The position numbers and the translations under genes were made by a program. From assembly GCA_000004985.1 (NCBI GenBank), contig GG738876.1: a DNA stretch of 64,000 nucleotides. One strand, given 5' to 3'. The notes beneath the pieces were generated by a model. The model made no database searches, was not told where the DNA came from, and saw only the letters and a program-made list of their open reading frames with translations. This DNA comes from Naegleria gruberi (Eukaryota). Shown here piece by piece: positions 15,052 through 33,553 of the stretch (position 1 is its first letter; the number at the start of each line of letters is the position of its first letter).

Positions 15052-16716
15052 ATGTATCCTCCAAATGAAAATGGGACAGAGTATTCGGGTCCTTTCTTAA
15101 CGATAAATGATAATGGCAGTAGTAACACTCTTCATCAATTAATAGAAAATAATAATTCAAAAAGGAAGGGATTAAATCAGTTGGATATATCATCATCAAC
15201 TCCTTCATCAAGAAAAGGCTCCATCCTCTCTGGAGGAAATAAATCATCACCCAGTTCTCCTCTCCTTACTGCCTCTCAACAACATCATCCAATGAGGAAT
15301 TCCATTCTTGAGGATACCGAAATTAAGAAGGTAATAACACTCTCTCTTCAACTGACAGAGGAAGTAAAGAGACAAAAAAACCGAGTCTCCGAAAAGGAAT
15401 TGGAAAATCAAGCCCTTGAGAGAGAAAATCAATTTCTTCATGATGAAATGGCAAATATTAAGGAACAAGTATCAGCCTTAAAGGCAAAGAAAAATCAATA
15501 CAAGTACGAAAGAGATACTTTAAAATTGGAATTGAACAATTCGAGAGAAAAATTATTACACATCACTAAGGAAAAGGATCTACAAAAGGAAGAGAGTGAG
15601 CCATCGGAATCAATTGGAGATAAGGAGAGTAGTAATAGAATTGCATTATTGAAGAAGGCGGAATCTTCTAAAAAATTAATTTTAGACAATGGTTGGATGG
15701 CCTCAGCAGAACTTAGAAATAAGTATCAAACTGTATGTGACAACCTAGATGAAATGACAGAAAAAATAGAAAAGAGTGATCAACAAATGAAAGAGTTGAC
15801 AGAACAAAACAAACTACTCGAGCTCAAGCTTGCGAATGCAAGAGAAAATGAAAATGCTCTCCTCAATCACGTGGAATATACAGAACAGCTCTATTACGAG
15901 GCTAGAGAAAATGTAGAAAATCTCACCGATACTGTAAACAAAATGAAACGAGAATATGATAGAGTTGTTCATGGAATTGGTTGGAGAGCTCCAATGGAAA
16001 TTAGTGATGATAGTATCTCATCGAGCAATGATTCTACACCAAGAGAATATCTAGATTTGGAACCGGCAGATGAGCTTCTTCAAGTAGCGGACGGAGATGA
16101 AACATCACAACTTAGAATTGAGAATGCCAAGCTAAGGCATGATTTGGAGGAACTTCAACGAATTCTTGACCAAACTCGAGAGGATTTACAAATACTAAGA
16201 ATTCAAAGTATGGAATCTCCACGAACACCTAGGGTTGGTACTCCAAGAAACACTGAAAAATTGGTGCCTCAACAACCTTCTCCTGTTTCCAATACATCGA
16301 GTGCTGATGTTATAGATAGTAAGATATTTGAGGAGTGGAATAAGCTTTTATCGGATAAATTTGAACATAATTTAGAAATCTTAAAGGAACAAGTGGTTGG
16401 ATACGAGAGAAAATCCTTTAATAATAATTTGAAAAATAAGCAACAATCACAGAGTTTCTTAGAAGATTACTTTAGACTAATGTTACTCTCTGTAAAGATT
16501 TTACTTTCTAAAGAGCCTAGGTATCAGAACACTGTATGGTATAAGATATGGTGTGATGTCAATTCCGAAGAAATTTATTCAGCAATCCTTAATAACCAGG
16601 TTCCTATTGAGGAATGGTGGCTATTCCTATATACTACCATTCAGACACGTCTCGAATATGCCAAACTAGAGTATGAAGATGAAGAATCAGGAGCATTAGC
16701 CTTTGATCTTTCGTAA
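15052..16716 (+). CDS. Coiled-coil protein, 554 aa, unknown function
   Basis: Long heptad-rich K/E/L/Q segments between a Ser-rich N-terminus and a conserved-looking C-terminus. ATG 15052; TAA 16714-16716. Confidence 0.55.
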   Translation: MYPPNENGTEYSGPFLTINDNGSSNTLHQLIENNNSKRKGLNQLDISSSTPSSRKGSILSGGNKSSPSSPLLTASQQHHPMRNSILEDTEIKKVITLSLQLTEEVKRQKNRVSEKELENQALERENQFLHDEMANIKEQVSALKAKKNQYKYERDTLKLELNNSREKLLHITKEKDLQKEESEPSESIGDKESSNRIALLKKAESSKKLILDNGWMASAELRNKYQTVCDNLDEMTEKIEKSDQQMKELTEQNKLLELKLANARENENALLNHVEYTEQLYYEARENVENLTDTVNKMKREYDRVVHGIGWRAPMEISDDSISSSNDSTPREYLDLEPADELLQVADGDETSQLRIENAKLRHDLEELQRILDQTREDLQILRIQSMESPRTPRVGTPRNTEKLVPQQPSPVSNTSSADVIDSKIFEEWNKLLSDKFEHNLEILKEQVVGYERKSFNNNLKNKQQSQSFLEDYFRLMLLSVKILLSKEPRYQNTVWYKIWCDVNSEEIYSAILNNQVPIEEWWLFLYTTIQTRLEYAKLEYEDEESGALAFDLS

Positions 16717-16736
16717 TCTATTCGTATTCTAACAGC

Positions 16737-17291
16737 CTACTTATTTCTATTTATTTCGTCCATTGTATATATAGCCTCAATAATTACATTCGCAATAGCT
16801 AAGTCTCCCTCATGTGACAATGATAAATGTGTCACATAATCATTTGCATGTTTCTCTTCTAATGCAATTTTAATAATTTTGTTAATTTCACTCCCTTCCA
16901 ACTTTAATAAAGGTGGATACAGTTTTGTGATACTATTATTCAAAATTTGTAAATTAGCTTGATGATTTTTGTAGACAAACATTTGTTTACTTCCAATTCC
17001 ACTAACTCCTAGCGCTTTAATTGTTGCTTCCTTTGCAGCCCATCTAGAGGCATAATATTGAGATATCCGTAATTGTTGTTTTTTCAAAAGTTCCAAATCT
17101 GATGTGGTATTATTATTCACTATTGAACATGTTGCAAAAGCCTCTGAAAAAACGAGAGGACATTGTTGAATTTCGGAAGGATGAAATATTCTCTTTACAA
17201 ATTTTTCTCCGTGCTTGGCAAGCAATTGATGCATTCTACTTATTGAAGCCATATCAACTCCGATCCCAATAATTCTACCAAAGCTTGTCAT
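16737..17291 (-). CDS. PPT2: 4'-phosphopantetheinyl transferase / holo-[acyl-carrier-protein] synthase (Ppt2-like), 184 aa
   Basis: N-terminal IIGIGVDMASISRM matches the ACPS GIGxD motif, and the size fits the ACPS family. Its stop lies 20 bp from the stop of the convergent gene ending at 16716. Confidence 0.7.
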   Translation of the reverse strand: MTSFGRIIGIGVDMASISRMHQLLAKHGEKFVKRIFHPSEIQQCPLVFSEAFATCSIVNNNTTSDLELLKKQQLRISQYYASRWAAKEATIKALGVSGIGSKQMFVYKNHQANLQILNNSITKLYPPLLKLEGSEINKIIKIALEEKHANDYVTHLSLSHEGDLAIANVIIEAIYTMDEINRNK

Positions 17292-17705: not shown

Positions 17706-20700
17706 ATGAACATTAGTAACAATTCTATTCCCAATTCATCATCTAATAATATTAATATTATGAATAACAATACGATTATTACCGATACTAGTAATTCTAA
17801 TAGTAGCAACAATGGTATCAATAATTTCACTATGGAAACTTCTATGAACCAACAAGGTAGTACTACGATGGTGGGTATTGTTGATAATTCATTCTATTCC
17901 AAACCTTCTCCTTCCTCTTCCACTACCACCACCAGAGAATCTACTTCAGCTAACAATATACATCCCTCTAGTTTTATTCATCACCAACAACAACAAGGAT
18001 TCGCTCAACAACATAATTCTCAGAATAATAATAGTAGAATGGAATCAATATCATCATCAAATGCATTCTCTACTTATAACCAACAATCTTCACATCACAA
18101 TGTTCTTCCATCACTTCCTTCACTATCTCAAATGACAACCAGCTCCCCTAACCAAATTTATCCACAGAATACTAATAATAGTAATTTGGGAAATTCTGCT
18201 GTCTATCCAAATAATAATCCTTACTTGCTGGGAAATAGTATGGCTAACAATAATACAATGATGAGCCCATCGATGGTATCAAATGATAGTAACAATCGAG
18301 AACATCTTCCACCACCTCCACCTTCTGATTTTTCATACTCATCTAAGCAACAACCAATGTTTAATCAAAATCCTCCTACTAATAATGGTAATATCCAAAT
18401 GATGCATTCACAAATGAATCAACAACATGTGCGTCTTTCAAACATGCCCCAGAATTACAATCAACAACAACGTGCCCAAAATGAAGACAATTTACCATCT
18501 CTACAACAGTTTGGATTGTTATTTTCTCAATCCTTGAACATTTATCCAAGTAGTTCAAACGCTCAATTCCAACAAAATTCTAAACCTCCAACTACTGAAA
18601 AACCAATACATCAAGTATATAATGATAACAGACAACCAAAAGTTGCAATGAGTTTGAATACTAACAAGGCTAAACCTCTGAGTGTGGCCCCACAAAATAA
18701 TCAACAAGTTCATACCAGCTCTATTTTGAATCAACTGCATCAATCTCAAGACCAAAATAATTCTATGAAGAATAGATCATCTAAACTCATTTCACCACAA
18801 TCCTACATGGGTCCATATCCAAATAATCCTCCAACTTCCTTTGTGAACCAACCTAAATACTCGAATCAACGACCTGTTGTTCTTCCACAAGAAGAATCAA
18901 GAAATATCTCACCAACTGAAAAGTCTAGTATGATAGTACTTCCGTCAAACATGGTTGTCTGTGAAGGACTATTAAAATTAATTTCTCACAGAATAATGGA
19001 AACTATGCTTGCCTTTGATGAAAAAACTATGAAGAACGAAGAAACAAAATTAAGATTGCAAGATGAATGGAATAAGCTTGTAAATGAGTATTTCATCAAT
19101 GGAAGAAGACTTGAGGGAATGACACAAGTATTGCATACCTTGTTTGGAATGTTAACTTCAGAACCAGATATTGAAATTATCAAGGAAGGTATTTCTCCAA
19201 ATTTCAACAAGAAGGGAGATCATATGTTATCTATCAAATTTAGAGCAAACTTGAGAATAGTAAGACTTAAGATTTGTATATTTTTCCTTTTATTCAAATT
19301 AAGTGTTGGTACTTGTTTCCAACCAGAAAATGGAATGGAAGAATTTTTAGAAACAAATTCTTTGGTAGTTGACGAAAAATTGTTTTCAGCCATGACTTGG
19401 GAGCAATTTATCCTTGAAATGGACGCTATTGAAAGTAAATTAAGATTTAAGATTGATATGATTACTCACGAGGATAATGAAAACTCCATGGAGGATGCCT
19501 ACCCTTATCAACTCAATGTAAAAAATAATACTATGAATTCATTGGTATTGGAATCAGTCTCAGAAGAAAAGCTTCAGGCTTCTTTCAATCAGTTATTAAT
19601 TGATAGGTCCAACATTGAGAGATTCAAACAAAGTAGCTCACGATCTAATACTTTTAGACTTAGATTATCTATACAAATGTCAAATTATCTTACCATAACC
19701 AAGTTCAGTAATAATGTTTTGAGTATTGATAATAATTATGGGCTTATAGAATCTAGAAGCATTTCTACAATGTTTCCACTCCATATTGAAAGAGCCGAAA
19801 GAAAGAACAAGGTTGTTGTACTTGAGTTTAACCGTGATTTCTTTGTTACTCCAACAAGAGACAAATCAGATATTGATTTTATTGTCGAATTGACAAAGGG
19901 AGATGAAAGAAAAAGAGTATCAATCAAGAATATTTATATTGACAAGATAATCGTTGAATACATAAGTGGAGCACAGTATGTCACTGTCACCAGAGGGCAA
20001 GATGTCTTGTGTGAAAATTTAGAAATAGTTACAGTCAGAATTCATAATAACCTGAAAAAGCTTACTATTGGAACACCAAAGTCTATTGAAAGTGATTCTC
20101 CTTTTTCCTCAAATTCAACTACTCCTTCACCTCTATGTGAAGAATCACCTTCAAGAAGTACCAAGAGAGCACTATCAAATGAAGACGAAAGCTCAAATGC
20201 AGCATCTAGCACAACAAGTCCAACTGGACCAAAGAGGGTCAAGAGTAACCACTCCCAAAATATGGGCTTGGCTAATATTCAACAATATGTAAAGGGGCTA
20301 CGTGATAAGTGTGGATTTTCCTTGTTGCATATTGCTGCAATGAATGGATTCGATTTAGCAATAGAATTCTTCAATGAAACAATATCAATGCCTATCGATA
20401 TGACAGATAACTACCAATATTCACCATATCATTGGTCTTGTTTTTCAGGAAGAGTTTCAACATCAAAATTACTCATCTCAAAAGGAGCCAGTACCACCAG
20501 AAGAAACGTTCACTCAGCCACAGGTATTCAAATAGCAGAAGCTAAAAAACACAAAACCCTTATTACTGAATTAGAACAGGAATTGGCTCAACATGCTTGT
20601 TCAGTTCTATCTGATTTATACTCCAACTTGTCAGAATCAGATATTCCATTTACATCTCAAAATCGTTCTTCAGGCTTTGACCACTTACCTCATAATTTGA

Positions 20701-21788
20701 AAATTCCTCAACACAAAGCCACTAAAAGCTTTCCCAATTCCTCACCAAGACAACAAGGAAGTTCATCAGGTGAAAGTAACTCACCCAGACCAAAATTAAT
20801 CCCAGCAAAGAAGAAGAAGGATAAATCAAGCCCAACAAGCTCACCATTTGGGAGTTCAAAAAAAAGTGTAAAGAGTAATGAAGCATCTCCTGTTATAACA
20901 AGCTCACCAACAGTAGTAGCTAATTCCCTCTCTCAGAAGATGGAGCTCTTTATCAAACCAAGCAGAAAAAAGAGAACGTACATTTCCTTCTTCCCAAAGG
21001 AACTTTGCTCCAGCCCATACAAGTATGACATTTTGTTGAGAATTCCTTTGAATTTTACCAATCAATTCAATGAAAGTCATTTCACTTTCCACTTGATGAT
21101 TCAAGGTTCAGATAGACAATGGATGGCCGTGCCTGAACAGGCTGTTGAAATTGTAAAGTATTTGAGAACCATGTTCCCACTTAATTTTAGAGAAATTGAA
21201 TGGAGACTCATGTATAAGGTTTGCTCATTCCACTATGGAAGAAAACCTTTTAAACTCAGAGTTATTTACAATACCAATCTCAATCCAGAAAGTGCTGTTC
21301 CAGTTCCTGAGAACTTTGCTACAAATAGTGAAGGAAAGGCAACCCTTTCAGATAATTCTATAGTTTATGAATCTGAAGAATTTTATATTGTTGCTAGAAA
21401 GAAGAAGGAAAATGATTATTTCCATAATGATCTTTCTAATGGTGATGATATTTCATCTGTTACAGACCAATCTCCACTCACTCTTGACCAATCTCTTAAT
21501 GGTGATGGTCTTTCACCAACATCTCCAGATTCTCCTGATTGTGGACCTAATAGTGTTTTCCCACGTAGTTCATCTCCACCACAACCTTATTCCTACATTC
21601 CTCCAAATGACAACTTTTCACAATTCCCATCCTCCTTGGTAGGTCAAAATTCAGGCAATCAAATGCCACTTCCTCCCCAAAACCTAATTAATCCAATGAG
21701 TCATAATATGATTCCTCAAACAATTTTGTCTCACCAACAAACTCCTCAACCACCTCGACCAGTTACACAAAGTTTTAATAAACAATAA
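17706..21788 (+). CDS. Large N/Q/S/T-rich low-complexity protein with ankyrin repeats, 1360 aa
   Basis: Ankyrin-like block (GFSLLHIAAMNGFDLAIEFF ... SPYHWSCFSGRVSTSKLLISKGAS), followed by a Ser/Pro-rich basic region and a conserved C-terminal domain. ATG 17706. Confidence 0.6.
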   Translation: MNISNNSIPNSSSNNINIMNNNTIITDTSNSNSSNNGINNFTMETSMNQQGSTTMVGIVDNSFYSKPSPSSSTTTTRESTSANNIHPSSFIHHQQQQGFAQQHNSQNNNSRMESISSSNAFSTYNQQSSHHNVLPSLPSLSQMTTSSPNQIYPQNTNNSNLGNSAVYPNNNPYLLGNSMANNNTMMSPSMVSNDSNNREHLPPPPPSDFSYSSKQQPMFNQNPPTNNGNIQMMHSQMNQQHVRLSNMPQNYNQQQRAQNEDNLPSLQQFGLLFSQSLNIYPSSSNAQFQQNSKPPTTEKPIHQVYNDNRQPKVAMSLNTNKAKPLSVAPQNNQQVHTSSILNQLHQSQDQNNSMKNRSSKLISPQSYMGPYPNNPPTSFVNQPKYSNQRPVVLPQEESRNISPTEKSSMIVLPSNMVVCEGLLKLISHRIMETMLAFDEKTMKNEETKLRLQDEWNKLVNEYFINGRRLEGMTQVLHTLFGMLTSEPDIEIIKEGISPNFNKKGDHMLSIKFRANLRIVRLKICIFFLLFKLSVGTCFQPENGMEEFLETNSLVVDEKLFSAMTWEQFILEMDAIESKLRFKIDMITHEDNENSMEDAYPYQLNVKNNTMNSLVLESVSEEKLQASFNQLLIDRSNIERFKQSSSRSNTFRLRLSIQMSNYLTITKFSNNVLSIDNNYGLIESRSISTMFPLHIERAERKNKVVVLEFNRDFFVTPTRDKSDIDFIVELTKGDERKRVSIKNIYIDKIIVEYISGAQYVTVTRGQDVLCENLEIVTVRIHNNLKKLTIGTPKSIESDSPFSSNSTTPSPLCEESPSRSTKRALSNEDESSNAASSTTSPTGPKRVKSNHSQNMGLANIQQYVKGLRDKCGFSLLHIAAMNGFDLAIEFFNETISMPIDMTDNYQYSPYHWSCFSGRVSTSKLLISKGASTTRRNVHSATGIQIAEAKKHKTLITELEQELAQHACSVLSDLYSNLSESDIPFTSQNRSSGFDHLPHNLKIPQHKATKSFPNSSPRQQGSSSGESNSPRPKLIPAKKKKDKSSPTSSPFGSSKKSVKSNEASPVITSSPTVVANSLSQKMELFIKPSRKKRTYISFFPKELCSSPYKYDILLRIPLNFTNQFNESHFTFHLMIQGSDRQWMAVPEQAVEIVKYLRTMFPLNFREIEWRLMYKVCSFHYGRKPFKLRVIYNTNLNPESAVPVPENFATNSEGKATLSDNSIVYESEEFYIVARKKKENDYFHNDLSNGDDISSVTDQSPLTLDQSLNGDGLSPTSPDSPDCGPNSVFPRSSSPPQPYSYIPPNDNFSQFPSSLVGQNSGNQMPLPPQNLINPMSHNMIPQTILSHQQTPQPPRPVTQSFNKQ

Positions 21789-21841
21789 AAAACAACGCCA
21801 CATTTTCCCGCCAAAATTGAATTCAAAACCACTACAAAAAA

Positions 21842-22507
21842 ATGACTGAACAAGCAACAAAACAAACCCGTTTCAATGAGGTTGAAGAACATTTTGAGGA
21901 TGGAGATGAGAATGAAGAGGGATTGAAGGAAGGTGATTTGGAACACTTGGATAAATTCAGTGATCAAGTATCTTTCATGACAGGGTCAACAGGAAAATCC
22001 TCTTTCAATATGAACAAGTTTTTCATCAGCCCGATTGAACAGAGAGAATTGAGCATGGCTCGGGCTAAAATTCAAAGGTTTGATGAGAGAATTGGTACTG
22101 AATATCAAAAGATTCAAGACCTTAAAAATCAAATTGTTCAAATAACTCAACAAATAGCAGAGAGCCAAGCTCATACTGCTTATCTTCAACTTGATGAGGA
22201 GGCCCTCAAACTTGAATTCATTCAAGCCAAACTAATTTATGAAATGGAATGTAGAAAAAAGCAAATGCAAGAAAGAGAAATGAAGAATTTGAGAAAAGTG
22301 AGAGAGGCTAAGGAAAATGAATTCTTAAGGAAAGGTTGGCGATTACAAAAAGCAGAAGCAATCAGAAGAAAACAAGAAACCAAAACTACTGACATTGTTT
22401 CTCAAGTGTCACGAATCCAAAGTACAGTCGAAGAACTCACGGAAGATGTACATCACTATAAGGCTTTAGATAAGAAACTCAAATCTTCTATTCAAAACAA
22501 CTTTTAA
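21842..22507 (+). CDS. Small coiled-coil protein, 221 aa
   Basis: ATG at 21842; heptad-rich sequence throughout. Confidence 0.5.
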   Translation: MTEQATKQTRFNEVEEHFEDGDENEEGLKEGDLEHLDKFSDQVSFMTGSTGKSSFNMNKFFISPIEQRELSMARAKIQRFDERIGTEYQKIQDLKNQIVQITQQIAESQAHTAYLQLDEEALKLEFIQAKLIYEMECRKKQMQEREMKNLRKVREAKENEFLRKGWRLQKAEAIRRKQETKTTDIVSQVSRIQSTVEELTEDVHHYKALDKKLKSSIQNNF

Positions 22508-22774
22508 ATGTGTCACAGGTTCACAAAATAGAAGAGTATTTGAAATATGTTGACAAGATAAGATTATTGAAGCTCGGAGAATGGCACAAAGGGTTGATTG
22601 ATCCCTTTACTGTAACAACAAACTAAAGTTCCTAATAAGTGAGATTGAAAAACTACAGTAATTTCAAGAGAGAAAAACAAAAGATTTTTCAAAATAAAAT
22701 ACAACGACTTTGTCCACCGGTAAATTGAATATTAAGGTCGGATCGTAATTTCTATCAACATCAGCAACAACACC

Positions 22775-25378
22775 ATGTCGCTCAACTTGGATACCTCCCA
22801 ATTATCGGAGCTAGAAAGTTATCAACCTCCTCACTCACCAATGAGGAAGAAGCAACAAATTCTTGAGAAGAGTAAAAAGGGACATGAACGATGTGTTGAT
22901 CGTTTACAGCGTAAAATAATTTGTGATAAAATTGCCAATGAGGAAGCTAAAAAACAAGAACTACAAGAAAAGGCAAGGAAATTAAAAGAATGGAATAATT
23001 TAATGGAGACAGTCAAGTCCTATCAAATTCCTCTAATTGCCTCAATATCTACAAGTGCCGATGATGACACTCCATTTCCATTGTCACCAACAAAAAAAGT
23101 ATTGGCCAATGACAGTCTTCTATCTGCCCTTGAAAAGGAGGCTTATCAAAACGCTAGAGACGATAAAAAGGCTGAACTCGCAAAATTAGCAAATTTAGAG
23201 TAAGTTATTAATACCACTACCTGTCAGTTCATATTCTTGATTTATTTAATCGTCCTTATATTGATATTTATAGAGCCAAGGAGAGATGCACAACAAGAAA
23301 GAGATGGTATGAAGGAAAGACATCTTTCGAAAGCTTTAACAAATTGCTAAAATTCCAAAATGAAAGACGAAATGCTTACAATGAAGGACGATTTAAGATA
23401 ATGACATTGGATGAGGAATTCGATGAATTTGAGGACAATTTAGCAAAAAGCCAGCACCAAGTGGGTTTGAATCAATCAATTATTTCAGAAAAGACATCAA
23501 CAGGAACTGTTGTGGAAGATATTCAACCTCAAAAACAACCTTTAACACCTTTGGAAATTTCATCAGGAAGTATCGGAAATGTTAGAGGTGTTATCACACC
23601 AAAAGTATCATGTAAGTAATGGTTGATTTTCATTTTGTAACATTTCGGAAGTGGTTAAAAAGAGACTTGATTTTGTTGTTCAATATTTGGATAAGGAGGA
23701 GTTAGTAAGCACCCAAGAAATAAGGAAGATGGTTTATTTGATTTGTAGAAATGTGATAGAGAATCAAGAAGATTTACACAGAAAGAGAGTTAGGGTGTAC
23801 ATTTCCAAGGAGATGGATCAAATTGTTAAAAGAGTAATTTTTGCATGCAATACTAGACAAGCAATTCAAGGCTTCGTTCGCAATATTTGTGATGCAGTAA
23901 TTAGAAATCAAAATGAAATTGAAAGAAAAAAGAGGAATGCTAAGTTTATTTCCCAAGAGGTGGATCAAATTTTGAAGAGCATAATCCATTACAATGAGAC
24001 AAGACAAGAAATTGAGAGAGTGGTTTCTCTCACACTTAAAAATGTTATTGCAACACAAATTGATAAGCAAAATAGGGAATATGTTTCAAGGCAAGTTCAA
24101 TCAATTTTGGACAGAGTCATCCTTCACCAAACAACAAAGCAACAAATTGAAAAAACAGCTTTTGAAATTTGTCAAAACGTTCTTCACACCCAAGAAACAA
24201 GACAATATATTGAAAGAGTAGTCAGCAATGTATTTGAAAATGTTGTTAATCATCAAAATACTCTGTGCATCAAGAATGAAGTTGACCAAATATTTTCAAA
24301 TGTAATTCATACTCAAGAAACTAAACAAAATATTGAAAAGACAGTAGAAGAGATTTTGATGAAAGTAGTTGTCACTCAGGGAACAATACTGGAAGAAAAG
24401 AAGATACGATTGTTTATTGAAAAGGAAGTGACTCAAATTCTTAAAACCGTAGTTCAAACTCAAACAATCAACTCATTAGTCTCCAATATTATCTATAATG
24501 TAATAAGAACTCAAGAAGACAAACAAGATATTGAAATAGTGACCAGAGACATTATTTTCAATGTTATTAATCACCAAAATACCAAATTACAACAAGAAAG
24601 AAACCAAGCTGAAATATCAAAGGTGGTAGAGTCAATTGTATCCAATGTCATTCAATTCCAAGAGACAAAGAAATCCATTGAAACTTACGTCTCTCAAATT
24701 ATTGAAAATGTTATTTACTCTCAAAGCAACAAGCTCGAAGTTCAAAAAGTTGTTTGTGACATTATTCAAAATGTAATTTCACACCAAGTCAAAAAGAAAG
24801 ATTGCTTACTTATTTCTGCAGAAGTCAATTCTATAATTCAAAGAGTTATAGATTTCCAATTGTTTAAAAAAGAGGAAAATGTTGATTCTCCATTGAATTC
24901 AGAAAAGACAAGTGAAGGTGAAGCAGAAGTAGAAACAAGAGTTATTATTGAGCAAGAAGTTGAAAGAATTTTCAAGAATGTAATCTCCAACTGGGAGTAC
25001 CATAACAAGATTGCTAAAGATGAAAGCAACAAATTAATAATTCAGAAAGAAGTTGAAGAAATTGTAAAGATTGTAATTTCAAAATGGCAAACTGAAAGTA
25101 TGGAAATCAAACAGAAAACAATCGAGACCGAAGAAATTCAACAAGAATCTCAAGTTATTATCAAGCAATTTGTTGAGGAAGCGCTTGGAAATGTTGTGAA
25201 CCTCCAAAACTCTCTTTTTATCAAAAATGAAGTAGAGTCTATAATTTTAAGAGTTATTGGAAATTGGAAAGATGAAATCTTGTCAAATGACCAAAGTATC
25301 AAAACTTGCACTGTTGAACAAGTAATTTCTCAAGAAGTTCAAAAAATCATTCAAAATGTCATTTCAAGAAACCAATAA
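22775..25378 (+). CDS. Three-exon gene for a novel tandem-repeat protein: join(22775..23199, 23274..23611, 23652..25378). About 830 aa, with a C-terminal array of ~29-residue repeats.
   Basis: Exon 1 ends at a GTAAGT donor (23200) overlapping the in-frame TAA. A 74-nt intron ends ...tatttatag at 23273. Exon 2 restores the frame of track ORF 23344..23619 (TTG-started) and ends at a second GTAAGT (23612). A 40-nt intron ends ...ttcggaag at 23651. Exon 3 is track ORF 23651..25378 (GTG-started), made of repeats of the form [IV]xNQ..K..IE..V..I..NVI.TQET. Confidence 0.6.
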
Positions 25379-25534
25379 TAAATGTATTTACAATTTTATA
25401 AGAGATTATCCTTGGCATTCCAAAAGGTTACAATTCCAATAAACTGTGTTTGCATTGGACTTTTAAATTTTTAAACCACTAAGTACAACAAATATTGTAA
25501 TTTATTCTTCTTCATAAAAGTTTTTGATTAAAAA

Positions 25535-27862
25535 ATGAATCCACTAGAAAGTGAATTACTCTCCAAAGCGATTGAATGCCTTCGGAGCAAGGTAATCACG
25601 TTAAACAATGAGGAATTTATCAAATGTTTAGAGAATACAGCTGAAGTTGTTGCTGATTATCAAATATTTGCAAAGACGAAACAAGAGTTAAATAATTTTG
25701 ATATTATATTTTCTATCAAGGACGATGATGATACTATTTGGAAAAAATTAATTAAATTCATGATGGCTTTTCATTTGACTTTAACTGTGAATAATATTGA
25801 TAACTTTTTGGAAGTGGAAGAAGCATTAAAAATTGTTGAAAAGTATTTGAAAATTCAAGATATGGATATGGTTTCTAATGAGATGATTTGTGTAGCTAAC
25901 TTGCTGATGTGGGTATTAGGGGATTTGAAAGACAAATCTTTGCAAGTTTCTAAGGGTGGATACTGTGAAAAATTCATTCAATTAGTGTTGGACTATTTCA
26001 AATATATTCACCACCAAATGAGAAAATCCAACCAAAATAATCAAGAATGGAAGCCAAGAGAAGATATTATAGAGTTATTCGCAGGAATTTATGAAAATTT
26101 ACCATTCAATCAATGGTATTGGCATGAATGGGATCATACAAAAGAATTAGGATTTGAATTTTTGGAACTTGTATATGAACTTGGAGAATATCCTCTATTT
26201 TCTGATAGTGACAATAGAATGCATCACTTATGCACATTTCTTGGCGAGGAAGCCATTAAAAAATTGGAATTATTAACTAATCGAGATGTAAAACAGATTG
26301 AGAATTTGAAACCAACAGATATTGTTCCTTTGGGAGAGATTTCACAGGGAACACCTGTTTGGAAGATTATCTTGAAAATAGCAAATGCAGTATTTGTTAT
26401 CTCATCAAAGCCACTCTTATCACCATCTATTCTTTTTGGATCCCAATATATCCAGTTATTTTTTGATACATTGAAAGTTTGTCCAGCTGAAATTGAGGAA
26501 ACTAAACTGGCGATTCATTTAATTGATGCATTAATCAGAATTTCAACAGTTATTACTCCAAGCCGTATGGACGATGAAGTGGAAGAGGAACATTTTACGA
26601 GATTGGAAGAGTCAAAAATTATTGCAACATTTATTGATTTCTATCATCTTGCACAAATCTCTTTGAAGGAACCAATTGTTAAAGCCATAACTATTTTAGT
26701 GCGTAAAATGCGTTCAATACGTGCCGATAATTTGGAGAAAACCTTAAATATATGTATTAACGAAGAAAAGATAACAAAAATGGATGAGCTACTTCTAGTC
26801 TGCTTTTCCATGTACGACTCTGATATAGCGAATCGGACAATACTGTCTAAACATATACACAAAATGATAGATAAGATTTTTGAATTTACTGTGACAGATA
26901 GAAATTTTTTTTACCAGTTTACCAAGTTTGATTTATTCAGAAATGCTGTAGATGACCCCTTATATGATCCATTCTTTAATCTGGACACAGAACGAATTAT
27001 TTCACAAATGAAAGGCACATTCAAAGATATGAGATCACTTGATAATTCACAATATTTGACAATCATGCGATGGTATAGTGGATTGATAGTAGCACTAAAA
27101 GTTGATCCCAAACACTTTGTTCAGGAGGTTTATGATGAATATTTCTACCTTGTGGAAAATCTACCGAAATATCTAATGTACCAAACTATACCGACTGAAA
27201 TATTCAGAGTAGTGCTTGGGCTCTGTATGGGCAATAGAGAATTTACTGAAAAAGTTAGCCATATAATATTTGAATTATTCTTTGATACTAACAAGATCGG
27301 AAAGGAGGAAATAGTACCCCTTATTGAATATTTACTAGTTAATGAGATTCTAACAAAACCAAATACACCAATTATCAAAAAAATCGAACAGAGAATTCCA
27401 CTTTTTATTAAGGAAATACGAGAAGGCAAAATATCATATTTAGTATTGCTCTGTATTGTTTATCCATACTTTCCAAACAAGATTTTTGACCTATTTAATG
27501 ATGTTTTTTTCTTACAGGCTATGATTTCATTCATTGACGAGTTTATAGATGATGAAGGAAAGATGAGCGTATTAAGAATTATCACAACCTCATTATTCCA
27601 AATTATGGAAGAATTGCTTGACCAAGAGAAGTATAAAGTCAGTGTGTTTAGTCCACCCGAAATGTTATACTCAATTGAGGAGTTCCTCACTCAGAGTGGT
27701 AATATAATAATTGACTGTCATAACAACCGAGTACGTCAGAAGTTAGAAATAGCAAAAGTGGAGCTTGTTGGCATGTATTCTGTCAACAGTGAAGAAGATG
27801 AAGAAGATGAAGAATATGACTATGATGACGAAGACGATGAAGAAGGTGAAGAAGATGATTAG
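25535..27862 (+). CDS. Large helical (ARM/HEAT-like?) protein with poly-acidic C-terminal tail, 775 aa, unknown function
   Basis: ATG 25535 in the context aaaaaATG. C-terminus EEDEEDEEYDYDDEDDEEGEEDD. Confidence 0.55.
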   Translation: MNPLESELLSKAIECLRSKVITLNNEEFIKCLENTAEVVADYQIFAKTKQELNNFDIIFSIKDDDDTIWKKLIKFMMAFHLTLTVNNIDNFLEVEEALKIVEKYLKIQDMDMVSNEMICVANLLMWVLGDLKDKSLQVSKGGYCEKFIQLVLDYFKYIHHQMRKSNQNNQEWKPREDIIELFAGIYENLPFNQWYWHEWDHTKELGFEFLELVYELGEYPLFSDSDNRMHHLCTFLGEEAIKKLELLTNRDVKQIENLKPTDIVPLGEISQGTPVWKIILKIANAVFVISSKPLLSPSILFGSQYIQLFFDTLKVCPAEIEETKLAIHLIDALIRISTVITPSRMDDEVEEEHFTRLEESKIIATFIDFYHLAQISLKEPIVKAITILVRKMRSIRADNLEKTLNICINEEKITKMDELLLVCFSMYDSDIANRTILSKHIHKMIDKIFEFTVTDRNFFYQFTKFDLFRNAVDDPLYDPFFNLDTERIISQMKGTFKDMRSLDNSQYLTIMRWYSGLIVALKVDPKHFVQEVYDEYFYLVENLPKYLMYQTIPTEIFRVVLGLCMGNREFTEKVSHIIFELFFDTNKIGKEEIVPLIEYLLVNEILTKPNTPIIKKIEQRIPLFIKEIREGKISYLVLLCIVYPYFPNKIFDLFNDVFFLQAMISFIDEFIDDEGKMSVLRIITTSLFQIMEELLDQEKYKVSVFSPPEMLYSIEEFLTQSGNIIIDCHNNRVRQKLEIAKVELVGMYSVNSEEDEEDEEYDYDDEDDEEGEEDD

Positions 27863-28124
27863 AAAGCCAATTTTGGCTAAAGTTTCCGTTTCAATTTCAA
27901 TTAAATTCAAAAGGTTTCAAACAGAACATTGTCTTCAATAGACTGATTCAATCGTTTACAATGTTTGCAAATGATTTCAAAAATTCAAACCGATCTTAGA
28001 AATATCGACATTCTTCTGTTCAATTGAAAAGGTAATTTTAACGACAGGTCAATAAATCTATCACTAGCATATGTTTTATTGAATATTAGTGATGTTCTTG
28101 ACTGAAAAACAATCAACCCAAGGG

Positions 28125-28234
28125 TTGAAAAGGAGCTTACCAAAACGATAAAAAGGCTGAACTCTTTTCATGAAATCAATAAATTTATTTACAATTTTAT
28201 AAGATATTATCCTTGGCATTCCAAAAGGTTACAA
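28125..28234. repeat. Composite duplicated segment: a copy of 23131..23179 (end of exon 1 of the repeat-protein gene, with a 9-nt in-frame deletion) fused to a copy of 25352..25433 (last CDS codons plus 3' flank of the same gene).
   Basis: Direct matches: gaaaaggag(g)cttayCaaaacg + ataaaaaggctgaactc; then tcat..gaaa.caataa..at.tatttacaattttataaga[g/t]attatccttggcattccaaaaggttacaa (57 bp with 2 mismatches between 25377..25433 and 28178..28234). Confidence 0.6.
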
Positions 28235-29942
28235 GATTCTGTCTTGTTTGATCAAAGTCAATGACTCTTCTCATTGTCTTGATTTCTTGCCCAACAATCA
28301 TGTAGGCAACTGGAAGTTCTAAATTCTCGCAGGCAATCAGTAATTGTTCATTATTGCAATTAATGACATAATTCTCTGTGATTCCCACTAATTTACAAAA
28401 TTCGTCTCTGCACTTTCCAAAATACTGCTTCACTCCAGTCTTGAAAGTTCTCTTCTCTTCCAATTTCCATCTGACTGTAATGTCCAAGAATTTAATCTTC
28501 TTAATCTTGGCATTTTCAACTAGAGTTGCAAGTTTTGCAAAGTTTTCATCATCTTTAATTTTGATTGCCTTGATCCTTTCTTCGTAGTCTTTGACATCTT
28601 CCTCTGGAGCACAATTTTCAACATAGATTTTCAGTAAAGTTTCAACGGCTCTGTTTGGAGCTGAAGATTGGCTCAACTTCTTTCTGCACAAAGGACAGGA
28701 CTTATTCTTGGCCAACCAATCATGCAGACATTTTCTGCAAAAGTTGTGCCCACATTCCAAGACAGTTGGTTCATACATTAAATTACAACAAATTGTGCAG
28801 CTGAATTCATTACAACAATCTTGAGCGAATTTGTTGAACTTTTCTTCCTTCAGCTTCTTTGAACCTGATTCAAAGTCAACTGATTCTTCTTTCTCTTCTC
28901 TCACCCTCTTGCCGGTTAATGGCTGTGGTTGGGTAGATTTTGGAGTGACTACAACTGGTGGCTCTGTAAACTCTTCATCAACCTTGAGATTAATTGCTGA
29001 TTTGGTTGGGTTCAAGTTTTTTGGAATGAATTGATTTTGGAGCATTTCAAATTTGTACATGAATGCATTCTTGACATTTCCAATCAGGGCACATTTCCAT
29101 TCTTGCTCAGTTGAGAAATCACTTCTTCTCTTTCCATTCTCAAGAATTATATAATCTCCAACCAAAGCTTTCACTCCTCCCGTAATAATTATCAAATCAC
29201 CATGTTTCAAATCAGTATCCTTGCCAATCTTTTTACCATTCAATAAAGTTCCATTGGTGCTTCCCAAATCTGAAATCAAAAAGGTGTAATCATTCATCTT
29301 GACAATATCTGCATGGTTTCTTGAAACAAATTTTGATAAAGTATTCGACACAATCTTGACATGGCTGTTCAAACCTCTTCCAATATTAATTTTGGTGTCA
29401 GAAAGGAGAAATTCAGGTGGAGCATCACTACATGCTTCACCAACAAGTCTCAATCTTCCCCAACAAGGACCCTTTGGTGCTATTGTTGATGATGCAGAAA
29501 TACAATTATTGGAAACTGAACTTGTCTTGCTCACAGTAGTGGATTGGTTTGCTTTCTGTTGCATATTTGCAAACTTTGGAGGTGGCATGCTTGTAAATGG
29601 AGATATCAATGTTGTAGAGGAACCATTCACACTCGTATTATACTGAAATCCCTGATTGAACATATTCATAATCATTGGTGGTGGTGGGGGAGGAAGAGAA
29701 TTCCTCATCAAATTGCCAGATATGTTTTTATTACCTTGCTGCATGTTAGTAGTACTACTTGTAGGAGTAGTGGAAATGATCAAGTTTGGAGTGGTAAATT
29801 CTTCCATGCTATTCATTTCCTCAAATAATCCCTTTGGAATGGTTGAGGAGGATGAGGAGGCTGGCGAGCAATTGGAATTTCTGTTCATCATTAGAGAATT
29901 AACGGTTGTGGTGCTTGAAGTGGTGGTAGTGGTGGTGGACAT
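28197..29942 (-). CDS. DMA1: FHA-RING E3 ubiquitin ligase (Dma1/Dma2 / CHFR family), 581 aa
   Basis: FHA domain (NIGRGLNSHVKIVSN..SRNHADIV...LISDLGSTNGTLLNGKKI) followed by a C3HC4 RING (CTICCNLMYEPTVLECGHNFCRKCLHDWLAKNKSCPLCR). ATG 29942-29940; TAA 28199-28197. Confidence 0.85.
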   Translation of the reverse strand: MSTTTTTTSSTTTVNSLMMNRNSNCSPASSSSSTIPKGLFEEMNSMEEFTTPNLIISTTPTSSTTNMQQGNKNISGNLMRNSLPPPPPPMIMNMFNQGFQYNTSVNGSSTTLISPFTSMPPPKFANMQQKANQSTTVSKTSSVSNNCISASSTIAPKGPCWGRLRLVGEACSDAPPEFLLSDTKINIGRGLNSHVKIVSNTLSKFVSRNHADIVKMNDYTFLISDLGSTNGTLLNGKKIGKDTDLKHGDLIIITGGVKALVGDYIILENGKRRSDFSTEQEWKCALIGNVKNAFMYKFEMLQNQFIPKNLNPTKSAINLKVDEEFTEPPVVVTPKSTQPQPLTGKRVREEKEESVDFESGSKKLKEEKFNKFAQDCCNEFSCTICCNLMYEPTVLECGHNFCRKCLHDWLAKNKSCPLCRKKLSQSSAPNRAVETLLKIYVENCAPEEDVKDYEERIKAIKIKDDENFAKLATLVENAKIKKIKFLDITVRWKLEEKRTFKTGVKQYFGKCRDEFCKLVGITENYVINCNNEQLLIACENLELPVAYMIVGQEIKTMRRVIDFDQTRQNLVTFWNAKDNIL

Positions 29943-30663
29943 GATTTTTTTGTGATGTTTTTTTGAGGAGAGTGGAAAGCCTTGTTTTTAAATGTTATTT
30001 TCCAACACAAGAAAGTTTGATTCGTTTAACCGTCCCATTTTTATGGTAAATATAGATTTTTGACGGTCACTTGCAGGGTGGGAACAAGAATTTTTGCTTG
30101 CTCAAAATTACGAACTTGTCAACAAAATATTTTACAATTCTTCTTTGGTTGATGATTATTGGATGAGAACGAATGTTTTGGAATTGGATTGTACTTCAAC
30201 CAATCAGCAAACATTGGAATTGTAAAATAGATTGCCAAATTAGTTTGTCTAATACCAATAAAGACTTTATGTTTCATCCAATCATCTTTAAGGGGTTTGA
30301 AAGAAATCACAAACACTTTCGATGAGCAGCAAATGATCCAAATTCTTTAAATATTCACTTTTTGGAATCCAATGAGGACTGAAAGATGTCATTGACTCAA
30401 AATCGATTCTCCAATCCTTGCAGAAAAGCTTCTTCTTGGTGAAGCATGCAGTCAATCCATGAAATTATTCACCGATCAATAGATTAATGTGAACTTGAAA
30501 TCAGAAAGCAGATGTAGTACAACATATCATTTCATAACCTATCAAAATCAAAAGCAATCTCACTATCCTCTTAAATACTTCCTCTTCTCCAATTTACTGA
30601 CCTTTCAATACACTGTCCTTAACCAAAGCGAATGTCAAGTACATATTTAGTTATTGATTATAA

Positions 30664-30737
30664 GCGCCGTTAGATCAGTTGGTTAGATCGTCAGCTTTAC
30701 ACGCTGAAGGTCAAGGGTTCGACTCCCTTACGGCGTA
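30664..30737 (+). tRNA. tRNA-Val (anticodon UAC), 74 nt, no intron
   Basis: Cloverleaf read by hand. Acceptor GCGCCGU/ACGGCGU with a G1-U72 wobble. D-arm GAUC-AGUUGGUUA-GAUC. Anticodon stem UCAGC/GCUGA with loop UUUACAC. Variable loop AGGUC. T-arm AAGGG-UUCGACU-CCCUU. Discriminator A. Confidence 0.85.
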
Positions 30738-31190
30738 ACTTTTTTACTGGTTTAAATCTATCCAAGTAATATCATTATTATTTTATGGTCCTTTTCCATG
30801 TATTCTTTTTTAATGTCAACCTATGAACATCTAGTAATTAAAAATCGGATTTCAACAATTAATTTATTGGTTGGCGATTTTGTTGAACCTAATTTTTTTT
30901 TAACCGTGCACCAACAAGAGCCAAAACCAGAGATTCATATCAGAAAACAAATAAATTCAAATTTTCACTCCAAACTAAACTTGCACTGAAACACAACTAT
31001 CATCCACTCTGTGTCACTCTCACGTGTACCCAAACATACAGTTCAAAGAAAATGATTTTTTATAGCTGTCTTTTTGTAAAACGCATTCATTTTCGTTTTG
31101 AAAAAAATATTTTCTCACGCTATCCTCTCGGTTTTTCACAACAAGCCTCTTTAAAAAACCAAAAAGTTTTTCAACAGCAACAACAACAAC

Positions 31191-32909
31191 ATGGCTCATT
31201 TAGAAAAGGCTGTCGTCATCGAAGATGATGTAAATCACGAACAACAACAAACCGAAGAAGAATTCGACTCTGCTGACTGGGCTGTTAGTACCAAGAAACA
31301 AAGAGGAGGTAGAAAACAAAAAGGTGTAGCACCAACATCAGTTCAAAATACAGTTTTTGGTTCTTCTATGACTAAGAAGAAACCAACAACCACTACCACT
31401 ACCTCTACTACTTCATCATTTAGCGGAAATTTGAAGAAGAAGACACCAACCGATAAGAAATCAACATTCTCTACCGATAAAACCATTCATCCACCTCACT
31501 ACACACACGAAAGAAGCGTTGAAATACCAGCTAGAGTTGATCCACGTTTCCTTGTCGGAGAAAAGGGTTCTTTCTCTAATGAGGTCAAAAAACAAACTGG
31601 TATTACTTGGTATAGCGTCAAGAATATGAAAGTTGTCATTGGTGGTGCTTCCGAGGAAAGTGTTGCCAAGGCTGAAGAATTAGTTATTGGTAGATTGAAC
31701 ACTTTCTCCATGACTCACTTCTCTGAAACTTTCAGTACTTTGGTCATTCCAGAACTTAAAGAACAATTAGATTCTGAAGATTCTGAAATTGAAAATATTG
31801 GTACTGAATATGATATTGTCTTGAAGCCATTCACTTCATTGGCTGTTTACTCAAGTCAACCAAACCACACTTTCAAGAGAATGGTTTTGAAGAAGGAAGG
31901 TGATGCCGAAGAAGTTACTGAGGATAAACAAAGCACTGCCACTGATCTCCAAGCATCCGTCATGAATGATGCTCATGATGTTGAAGCTAATGCCAGTGGT
32001 GAACACAACACACATCACAAGGAAATGACTTTGATGAATGAACATACAAAGGCTGACATGTTAGAAAAAATCGCTCACAAACTTGTTGATATTGAAATGA
32101 GAAAGAATGATTCTGAAATTTTGAGTGTTAAAGCTTTATACGGACAATTATTGGCTTTCAAATCTACTAAGGATTCTTTGAAGATTTTTGAATTGTTGGA
32201 ATTGAAGCACGGAAGAGATGTTAAATATCATTTTAACAGAATTGTTGAAGGTTCATTCTATGAAAAGTTGAAGAGTAATCTTAAATACATTCCTGATGAA
32301 GATGCTACCATTGTTGCTATTTACTTTGGAAAGCAAGTTGAAAAGGAAGAAGATGGTCAACAAGTTATGGCTGAAAAGAATGAAACTATCACCTTTGAAG
32401 TTAACAAGTCAACAGGAAAGTTGGAACAAATCAAGAAGAACGAACACACTAGGAATTATTACACTTTGAACTATGTTACTCCAATAACCAAGGGACGAAC
32501 AGAATTGAACGATTTCAAGATTACCATTGCTAGTTATGTTCCAAATGAAGTTGAACAAGACGAAAAGAAGGCAGAAATTGATTCATTCTTGAGTGGATGT
32601 ATTAATACTTGGGATAACCAAAATAATACTCTCAATACTGAATTGTTGAAGAACCCACCAAGCCCTTACAGATTCAAGGGAACTATTGTCAAGTTCAAGA
32701 AACACTACCACTCTGAAGATGGTGCTATCAAGGTTACTCTCCACGAAATTCACGATCTTGATACTAAGGCTATCAACTATGAAGTTGTTGTTGTCAGTGA
32801 AGAACTTTACAGATACTTGGATGACAAGGAACTGAAGCCAGCTGACAAGAAGAAGAAGTATAAGGAAAGTCTCGAAAAGTTGACTGACTGGTTGTTCACA
32901 AACCAATAA
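31191..32909 (+). CDS. Hypothetical 572-aa protein with possible KH-like RNA-binding segment
   Basis: ATG 31191 after caacaacaacaacATGG. The segment IPARVDPRFLVGEKGSFSNEVKKQTGITW resembles a KH core. Confidence 0.5.
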   Translation: MAHLEKAVVIEDDVNHEQQQTEEEFDSADWAVSTKKQRGGRKQKGVAPTSVQNTVFGSSMTKKKPTTTTTTSTTSSFSGNLKKKTPTDKKSTFSTDKTIHPPHYTHERSVEIPARVDPRFLVGEKGSFSNEVKKQTGITWYSVKNMKVVIGGASEESVAKAEELVIGRLNTFSMTHFSETFSTLVIPELKEQLDSEDSEIENIGTEYDIVLKPFTSLAVYSSQPNHTFKRMVLKKEGDAEEVTEDKQSTATDLQASVMNDAHDVEANASGEHNTHHKEMTLMNEHTKADMLEKIAHKLVDIEMRKNDSEILSVKALYGQLLAFKSTKDSLKIFELLELKHGRDVKYHFNRIVEGSFYEKLKSNLKYIPDEDATIVAIYFGKQVEKEEDGQQVMAEKNETITFEVNKSTGKLEQIKKNEHTRNYYTLNYVTPITKGRTELNDFKITIASYVPNEVEQDEKKAEIDSFLSGCINTWDNQNNTLNTELLKNPPSPYRFKGTIVKFKKHYHSEDGAIKVTLHEIHDLDTKAINYEVVVVSEELYRYLDDKELKPADKKKKYKESLEKLTDWLFTNQ

Positions 32910-33038
32910 ATTTACACAACTGCTTGAGTGTTTAATTTATTATCATTTCAATTATCCATTTTTTGTTATCCTATTTCAATTCAGTTTTCAAGTGTGGAGA
33001 ACTTGTGTTCATAGTACTCTGAACTTTAAATCAAAAAA

Positions 33039-33320
33039 ATGACTAACAAGTATAGCCTGCATAGTGACATGAAGATCTTTAGAACTCGTTTATTATTTGT
33101 TGGATGGGTGTTTGTCTTTCTATTCCCACCTGCTGTTCCTTGTCTATTGATGTATTATGAGAAGAGAAAGGTTGAGGCTGAGCACACTGAGACTGGAATT
33201 GGATGTTGTACGAATTATTATTTTGTTTGTGGAATGGTGGATGTTTGTACCATACTGTTGACAATACTAGGTTGGCTTCCTGGTTCAATATTCACAGCAG
33301 TACTATTATCTGGAATATAA
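33039..33320 (+). CDS. Pmp3/UPF0057 (Lti6/RCI2) family small membrane proteolipid with internal insertion, 93 aa
   Basis: Family signature FPPAVP ... ILLTILGWLPGSIFTAVLL. ATG 33039 in the context aaaaaaATG. Confidence 0.55.
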   Translation: MTNKYSLHSDMKIFRTRLLFVGWVFVFLFPPAVPCLLMYYEKRKVEAEHTETGIGCCTNYYFVCGMVDVCTILLTILGWLPGSIFTAVLLSGI

Positions 33321-33553
33321 TCATCTCCAACACAAAATTATACACTCACCCTATGAAAATAATTTGAAGAAAGAATAACAATTTTGAAGAGAATATTTAG
33401 AAAAGAAAATATTGCCATGGAGAACAATTCATAGCAATCATGAAAAAGTACCTTCCGATACCATTTGATCAAGTAATTAATTTGATAATAATAAATATCA
33501 TACGGCAATGATAATTTTAAAAATGATCAAGTATTGGAGATGAACTTAAAAAA

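Follow-up and report, generated by a model that had tools for sequence, protein, structure and literature searches.

The rearrangements closest to the locus reported here are insertions ascribed to fork stalling and template switching (FoSTeS), to break-induced replication mediated by microhomology (MMBIR) or to end joining with filler DNA, with templated insertions and microhomeology being named as an MMBIR signature in two published studies (PMC8421209, PMC6902434). Further points of comparison are the target-site duplications of transposable elements and retrocopies, gene relics and pseudogene fragments, and the orphan genes of Naegleria. Known elements duplicate about 2–20 bp of their target. 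Here, we describe a locus within a 64,000-nt stretch of Naegleria gruberi contig GG738876.1 (assembly GCA_000004985.1; by exact sequence matching, a 397-kb scaffold of strain NEG-M; this whole stretch is hereafter the window, to which all positions refer), where a gene for a repeat protein (R) and a gene for an FHA-RING E3 ligase (F) point at each other across an open reading frame (ORF) termed X. According to the original prediction, an internally deleted pseudo-copy of R had been re-used on its antisense strand as the C-terminal coding end of F. The arrangement is instead very probably the scar of an insertion between two genes that were once adjacent, and the two sequence matches underlying the prediction are the flanks of this one insertion, which had been missed.

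Results

Two Copies of One Gene Junction Flank the Insert

On the plus strand, the locus is composed of R, a left junction copy J (25359..25433), an insert (25434..28124), a 40-nt patch (28125..28164), a right junction copy J′ (28163..28234) and F. Self-BLAST of the window aligns 25374..25433 with 28174..28234 at 95% identity over 61 nt (E = 8e-20), and at a smaller word size the match covers 25359..25433 and 28163..28234 (67/75 identical, E = 1e-18). Its ungapped core, 25377..25433 versus 28178..28234, shows 55 of 57 bases identical, exactly the 57-bp match with two mismatches that had been predicted from position 25377. Allowing up to three mismatches, a 35-nt core of the junction match is found at exactly two sites in the window and in none of 100 shuffles. 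Homology between the copies ends sharply at 25433/28234, no extension being found beyond these positions. Start to start, J and J′ are spaced by 2801 bp, and the whole block between them (25434..28162) amounts to about 2.7 kb.

The two copies have complementary fates. J (plus strand) holds the true last six codons of R and its stop (25376..25378), a spacer of 17 nt from stop to stop and a dead antisense end of F (25396..25433), consisting of a stop and last codons that read ...VTFWNAKDNLL*; on the minus strand upstream of this relic, stop codons are present. J′ (plus strand), conversely, holds a dead end of R, namely a relic of its last codons with a 3-nt deletion, an in-frame TGA and a TAA at 28180..28182, followed at a stop-to-stop distance of 14 nt by the true stop and last codons of F on the minus strand (28197..28234). 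The antisense reading here, ...VTFWNAKDNIL*, is the genuine end of the 581-aa F ORF, and both readings had been predicted correctly. The bases overlapping the last 12 codons of F correspond to the 3′ flank of R and not to its coding sequence, while those derived from R codons (28125 to about 28187) lie downstream of the F stop (28197..28199). Accordingly, the idea that R coding sequence contributes to the coding end of F does not hold.

At the right edge of the insert, the plus-strand patch 28125..28164 is a non-coding filler copied from a plus-strand stretch of R exon 1 (23130..23179, codons for LEKEAYQNARDDKKAEL), with an E-value of 8e-5 window-wide and a local alignment score of 59 compared with 21.8 ± 2.8 (maximum 36) in 2000 shuffles. 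Like the junction match, it was found at the predicted place and far above chance. However, the single clean 9-nt in-frame indel ascribed to it has to be corrected: 38 of 39 aligned bases are identical, with one mismatch and gaps of 1 nt (a G of a GG run) and 9 nt (with ACG as a direct repeat on either side), giving a net loss of 10 nt, which is not in frame. The copied stretch stops at 23179, 20 nt short of the exon-1 end at 23199. An imperfect AAAT(T/G)TA stretch is common to the exon-1 tail (CAAATTTA), the 3′ end of R (TAAATGTA) and the copy (TAAATTTA), and due to this shared imperfect homology BLAST can stretch the exon-1 alignment to 23197. The join between patch and J′ shows a 2-nt microhomology (TC), and the patch is presumed to lie within the 3′ untranslated region (UTR) of F. 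In the self-comparison, the window shows no dispersed repeat besides this set of junction and exon-1 matches, if a coding tandem array near 46 kb is set aside.

The inserted segment (25434..28124, plus strand) comprises a 101-nt upstream region, X and a 262-nt downstream spacer. Neither terminal inverted repeats nor long terminal repeats (LTRs) were found at its ends among the longest 25 of 83 inverted pairs and the direct repeat families of 22500..28400. A poly(A) tail of the insert and an A-run after the R-derived copy are both absent, Rfam shows no family above or near threshold on 25300..28300, and the window does not contain a second copy of the insert.

The right-hand junction copy is also present in an independent metagenome assembly (contig L004) from a strain 96–99% identical to NEG-M and, thus, is not an assembly artefact. 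In this strain, 4 nt more are deleted within the exon-1 patch, indicating that the patch is non-coding. A scan of Joint Genome Institute (JGI) metagenomes with a 29-nt junction core gave no match and hence neither an empty site nor a second allele. As a side observation, the L004 spacer downstream of X (window 27956..27998) bears a 66-nt tandem duplication, and this non-coding stretch is therefore prone to slippage.

The R/F Junction Is Single and Lacks X in Three Related Loci

In Naegleria lovaniensis, Naegleria fowleri and two relatives known from metagenomes, the F orthologue has the terminus ...(D/N)F(W/Y)(N/S)A(E/A/G)DNLFF(Y/I/C), compared to ...TFWNAKDNIL in N. gruberi. The FWNAxDN terminus, proposed beforehand as a check on FHA-RING orthologues, is thus conserved in all four, and because of this conservation the last 12 codons of F are old F sequence. 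The relic at 25396..25433 even has the Leu of the other four species' sequences, whereas the live N. gruberi gene has Ile. Of the two alternatives raised in the original prediction, the one deriving the 3′ flank of R from a duplicated end of the FHA-RING gene is therefore borne out, the F terminus being ancestral and conserved in the four orthologues. The other, re-use of a pseudo-copy as the F terminus, fails on this same conservation and on the absence of X from the relatives' loci examined. What survives of the overall interpretation is that fragments derived from R adjoin the 3′ end of F; the claim of re-use in its title does not.

In N. lovaniensis (contig L001), genes termed ank (1376 aa) and cc (215 aa) are followed by R (425 aa) and a convergent F with 122 nt between the R and F stop codons and without X. 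The same order, also lacking X, is found in N. fowleri (contig L010), with 126 nt between R and F. A more distant metagenome relative (contig L005) shows cc, R and convergent F with a coding overlap of about 15 nt, again without X. The upstream neighbour cc221 is common to these three loci, and ank to the first two in addition. Since both junction copies of N. gruberi hold an R end and an F end contiguously, the two genes abutted already before the duplication.

The copies J and J′ differ from each other by about 4–11%, whereas orthologous proteins differ by 30–55% between the species. Hence, the event took place long after the species had separated. It is older, on the other hand, than the split between NEG-M and the metagenome strain, as the 96–99% identical strain has the right-hand copy. 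The polarity, i.e., gain of X, rests on the structure of the duplicated junction and on its youth. Searching metagenomes with the F alignment returned only distant FHA proteins, and within the junction copies the F-derived half did not differ significantly from the R-derived half in its substitutions (Fisher p = 0.40).

X Is an Orphan ORF Without Detectable Constraint Between Strains

X (NAEGRDRAFT_50077; 25535..27862, plus strand) is an intronless ORF of 775 codons encoding an acidic tail and matches XP_002675711 exactly. An exhaustive phmmer search against 1.84 billion representative proteins did not reveal any homologue outside its own cluster. The orphan status rests on this search, as word-index searches missed even X's own cluster and are given no weight. 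The 90% protein cluster consists of NEG-M and one strain variant only. Pfam assigns X none of the domains of a mobility protein (transposase, integrase, reverse transcriptase, endonuclease). Its base composition agrees with that of its neighbours, and a literature search on the gene identifiers found no papers. Single-sequence modelling with AlphaFold2 yielded an all-helical structure of low confidence (predicted local distance difference test score, pLDDT, 52), for which a Foldseek search of the PDB returned only generic karyopherin/ARM-like alpha-solenoids with template modelling (TM) scores of 0.37 or lower, allowing no specific assignment; among the viral models of BFVD, nothing was found with E ≤ 0.001. 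Two possible sources of X were considered and dismissed: it shows no similarity to R, of which it might have been a diverged copy, and none to an additional 1013-aa gene of N. lovaniensis.

When compared with a metagenome strain about 99% identical (L007 and L004:2953-3727), X shows 13 nonsynonymous and 3 synonymous substitutions, corresponding to 81% nonsynonymous changes where about 79% are expected without selection. Moreover, X carries a 1-nt frameshifting deletion (at 26393) and a 3-nt deletion in the metagenome strain. In contrast, 18 synonymous and 5 nonsynonymous differences are found between F and its counterpart on L004, indicating purifying selection on F, and the substitution patterns of X and F differ with a Fisher p of 3.5e-4. 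X looks currently unconstrained, its evolution between strains being about neutral, and the annotated gene may be non-functional or in decay. As a long intact ORF in DNA of 31% GC, it would have experienced selection up to a recent time, be it at this locus or in a donor.

The N. gruberi-like contigs of metagenome ERZ929261 used for these comparisons (L006, L007 and L004) diverge unevenly from NEG-M across 19280..30917, with identities of 99.87% at 19280..24457, 98.8% at 25501..26712, 99.0% at 27221..27998 and 96.2% at 27956..30917. Mixed strains, haplotypes or recombination are possible reasons for this pattern.

Genes and Repeats Surrounding the Insertion

R (NAEGRDRAFT_69076, XP_002675710; 22775..25378, plus strand) encodes 829 aa in three exons (22775..23199, 23274..23611 and 23652..25378) separated by GT-AG introns (23200..23273 and 23612..23651), and translation of this spliced model reproduces the annotated XP_002675710 exactly. 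In N. lovaniensis, N. fowleri and L005, the orthologue likewise has an intron behind the same exon-1 end (...LATLE|gtaagt). The N. gruberi protein is far longer than the 425-aa orthologues of N. fowleri and N. lovaniensis, the size gap being an expanded degenerate repeat array (23800..25370) without a Pfam family, whose units are mostly 63–198 nt apart and show a motif like E(V/I)xxIxxxVIxxQ. At cut-off level, Pfam assigns no family to either R or X.

F (NAEGRDRAFT_50078; 28197..29942, minus strand) encodes 581 aa, and its ORF matches XP_002675798/D2VJL1 exactly, for which UniProt gives the name 'E3 ubiquitin-protein ligase CHFR'. Pfam finds an FHA domain at residues 186–253 (E = 3e-16) and a RING at residues 381–420 (E about 1e-10), i.e., the CHFR/Dma1-type layout, in which the FHA domain is N-terminal and a C3HC4 RING finger comes after it.

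Adjoining F, a 572-aa gene (NAEGRDRAFT_80204; 31191..32909, plus strand) is divergent from F in N. gruberi, while its counterparts in N. lovaniensis (L001:7999-9762) and N. fowleri (L010:5721-7499) have the same direction as F. Because of this inversion, a second rearrangement breakpoint is located within 29943..31190. The slot between the 572-aa gene and a DUF2838 gene (window 32910..33527) is empty in N. gruberi and filled elsewhere, in N. lovaniensis by the mentioned 1013-aa gene, which has no Pfam match on record (L001:1989-5030), and in N. fowleri by a 636-aa EGF-like gene (L010:2815-4725). This suggests that the slot is a local hotspot of lineage-specific gene turnover. A second convergent ORF pair of the window has its stop codons only about 20 nt apart (16713..16740), and overlapping 3′ ends or tight convergent spacing seem to be common in the N. 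gruberi genome. Aside from the junction and exon-1 matches, the only strong internal repeat of the window is a degenerate tandem array at 45960..46860 with a period of 27–42 nt, in which the Tandem Repeats Finder (TRF) consensus units are rich in GGAAGAAGACCA/CCAGATCA.

Discussion

A Probable Route to the Present Locus

Taken as a whole, we consider it probable that the locus arose by insertion between two tail-to-tail genes, with duplication of their junction, in a single repair event with template switching. In the ancestral state, R (plus strand) and F (minus strand) met tail to tail with their stops about 14–17 nt apart, so close that the 3′ untranslated end of each gene would have reached into its neighbour. 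A segment of about 2.7 kb with X would then have been placed in this junction in the lineage of N. gruberi, 12 codons inside the 3′ end of F, leaving the junction of about 72–75 bp on both sides of the insert. The left copy would have remained joined to R, so that the real end and 3′ flank of R are preserved, next to a dead relic of the 12 final F codons. Likewise, the right copy would have stayed with F, which keeps its C-terminus, the last codons of R being dead in the 3′ flank of F. Between insert and right copy, the 40-nt patch would have had its template in R exon 1, at a distance of 2.2 kb upstream from the break. A nascent strand may thus have followed R as far as 25433, jumped to the donor of X and next to R exon 1, and re-entered the junction at 25359. 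The insertion would have been tolerated because the duplication left both neighbours, which look essential, their true coding ends and native 3′ flanks, at least 50 nt in each case.

Repair synthesis that switches templates has a known signature, namely a direct flanking duplication combined with a patch templated from a nearby site of the same strand. The patch lies between insert and J′ in the orientation of its source at 23130..23179, as expected for a templated segment in FoSTeS, MMBIR or filler repair. This points either to a replication restart of the FoSTeS/MMBIR type or to end joining that is synthesis-dependent and leaves filler DNA, and not to transposition or retroposition. Nevertheless, the mechanism taken by itself, template switching in a single event, is put forward tentatively.

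Several points weigh against this account. Microhomology could be assessed at one of the four joins, that of patch and J′, and the independent contigs do not reach the left join at 25433/25434. A single event is assumed as the simplest and more parsimonious account. The 3′-UTR role of the relics is putative. In a fourth relative (contig L002), F resides in a different neighbourhood. Furthermore, F-protein distances place N. gruberi perhaps as sister to all other sampled taxa, and with N. gruberi possibly being sister to the rest, synteny alone cannot polarise gain versus loss of X. Finally, the junction copies are spaced by 2801 bp, about as much as R and its upstream spacer measure together, which would also fit an initial tandem duplication of R that was overwritten later.

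Other Explanations

This last point leads to a stepwise history in which tandem duplication of R with the junction (about 2.8 kb) gave R-J-R′-J′-F, and the second gene copy R′ later disappeared almost completely, through deletion or through being overwritten when X arrived. It is the equivalent of the 'internally deleted pseudo-copy' proposed originally, of which no more than the last codons and 40 nt of exon 1 would be left. The upstream intergenic spacer and R together span 22508..25433, and the short imperfect homology between the exon-1 tail and the 3′ end of R could have mediated the internal deletion of 2.2 kb. In addition, two spacer stretches, 27922..28116 and 25437..25533, align weakly to the repeat array of R (p about 0.03 each). 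The whole spacer 25434..25534 scores 21 against R compared with a shuffle mean of 16.5, with the observed score being reached in 5 of 200 shuffles, and for 27863..28124 the values are 26, 20.4 and 6 of 200, respectively. However, these alignments have an identity of roughly 60%, lack collinearity with R and fall inside the shuffle range, so that the spacers were rejected as marginal remnants of R from the same event, true fragments being about 95% identical. At the latter level, no further R sequence exists between the copies, which also speaks against the predicted loss of introns, exon 2 and repeat array from a whole gene copy. As X, moreover, is dissimilar to R and no fewer than three events would be needed, namely a duplication, an internal deletion and an insertion of X in which the 5′ part of R′ was lost, we regard the stepwise history as unlikely. 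A processed pseudogene of R was also rejected: the exon-1 piece ends 20 nt before the exon end and is joined about 20 nt before the exon-3 stop, hence not at exon-exon boundaries, and exon 2 and nearly all of exon 3 are absent. For a retrocopy of R, the 3′ poly(A) is missing, and the sole flanking duplication surrounds the X insert and not the R fragments.

A mobile element or cassette generating target-site duplications of about 75 bp, with X as cargo or mobility protein, would explain a direct duplication of 72–75 bp around the insert, an orphan ORF without recognisable relatives and an insert missing from the same site in related species. Against this stand the lack of terminal inverted repeats, LTRs and poly(A) tail, the absence from X of the mobility domains listed above together with its generic alpha-solenoid look, and the failure to find a second copy in the window, with the 90% cluster of X adding only a strain variant. 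Besides, an exon-1 patch is not expected from transposition. Such an element therefore appears very improbable, and the broader proposition that the 2.7-kb segment is foreign or mobile, be it a gene captured from an unsampled organism or virus and integrated through template-switching repair or the first example of a Naegleria element making target duplications of about 75 bp, fares slightly better and is still quite improbable. That the 12 final F codons were overprinted on the strand antisense to a copied R 3′ end has next to no probability. It was suggested by the overlap of the right-hand copy with these codons, and it is refuted by the same C-terminal motif in N. lovaniensis, N. fowleri and the two metagenome relatives; in addition, the R/F junction is single and without X where the neighbourhood could be read (N. 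lovaniensis, N. fowleri and L005), and F is under purifying selection. Equally negligible is the chance that the matches reflect a 3′-end or polyadenylation consensus, low-complexity similarity or an assembly artefact. Such readings are favoured by the AT-richness of the DNA and by strings resembling AATAAA in the shared stretch. However, E-values of 1e-18 to 8e-20, a core confined to two sites in 64 kb and absent from shuffles, and the inclusion of conserved F coding sequence argue against chance and against the consensus that had been named beforehand as a possible refutation, and the presence of the same right-hand junction in the independent assembly argues against an artefact.

Significance and Comparison With Known Systems

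The insertion with duplicated junction represents an ordinary kind of rearrangement that has been cleanly preserved, a small structural scar whose worth is that of a worked example. As seen here at base resolution, new DNA can enter between convergent genes that share their 3′ ends in a compact genome without harming them only if the junction is duplicated. The scar fixes the arrival point of a species-restricted ORF of 775 codons and, thus, bears on how 'orphan' genes enter gene lists. It also calls for caution, as the antisense overlap of a gene end with a nearby repeat does not prove that coding sequence has been built from a pseudogene. Should the segment be foreign or mobile after all, the locus would be a dated, base-resolved record of the entry of an orphan gene into a compact protist genome, with the overlapping convergent neighbours left undamaged.

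With insertions of the FoSTeS, MMBIR or filler type, the locus shares the direct flanking duplication and the 40-nt same-strand patch from a few kb away. The 2-nt microhomology at the one checkable join, the nearby 'microhomeology' and the clustering of small deletions and substitutions likewise resemble features reported for FoSTeS/MMBIR in PMC8421209 and PMC6902434. Unlike the usual cases of this class, it represents a fixed germline event in a free-living protist and not a somatic or disease allele, and its main inserted block is 2.7 kb long with a complete ORF. As in the target-site duplications of transposable elements and retrocopies, the target is found once per side in direct orientation. 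Unlike in transposable elements, however, for which 2–20 bp are typical, the duplication has 72–75 bp, terminal repeats, poly(A) and a mobility gene are lacking, and there is an extra patch. The short, frame-broken and non-coding remnants of R and F beside the intact genes are like gene relics and pseudogene fragments, but in contrast to relics of whole copies they are by-products of the 75-bp junction duplication and of the templated patch. Like Naegleria orphan genes, X has no detectable homologue outside N. gruberi; it differs from other orphans in showing no purifying selection between strains and in having its arrival at the locus recorded by the flanking duplication.

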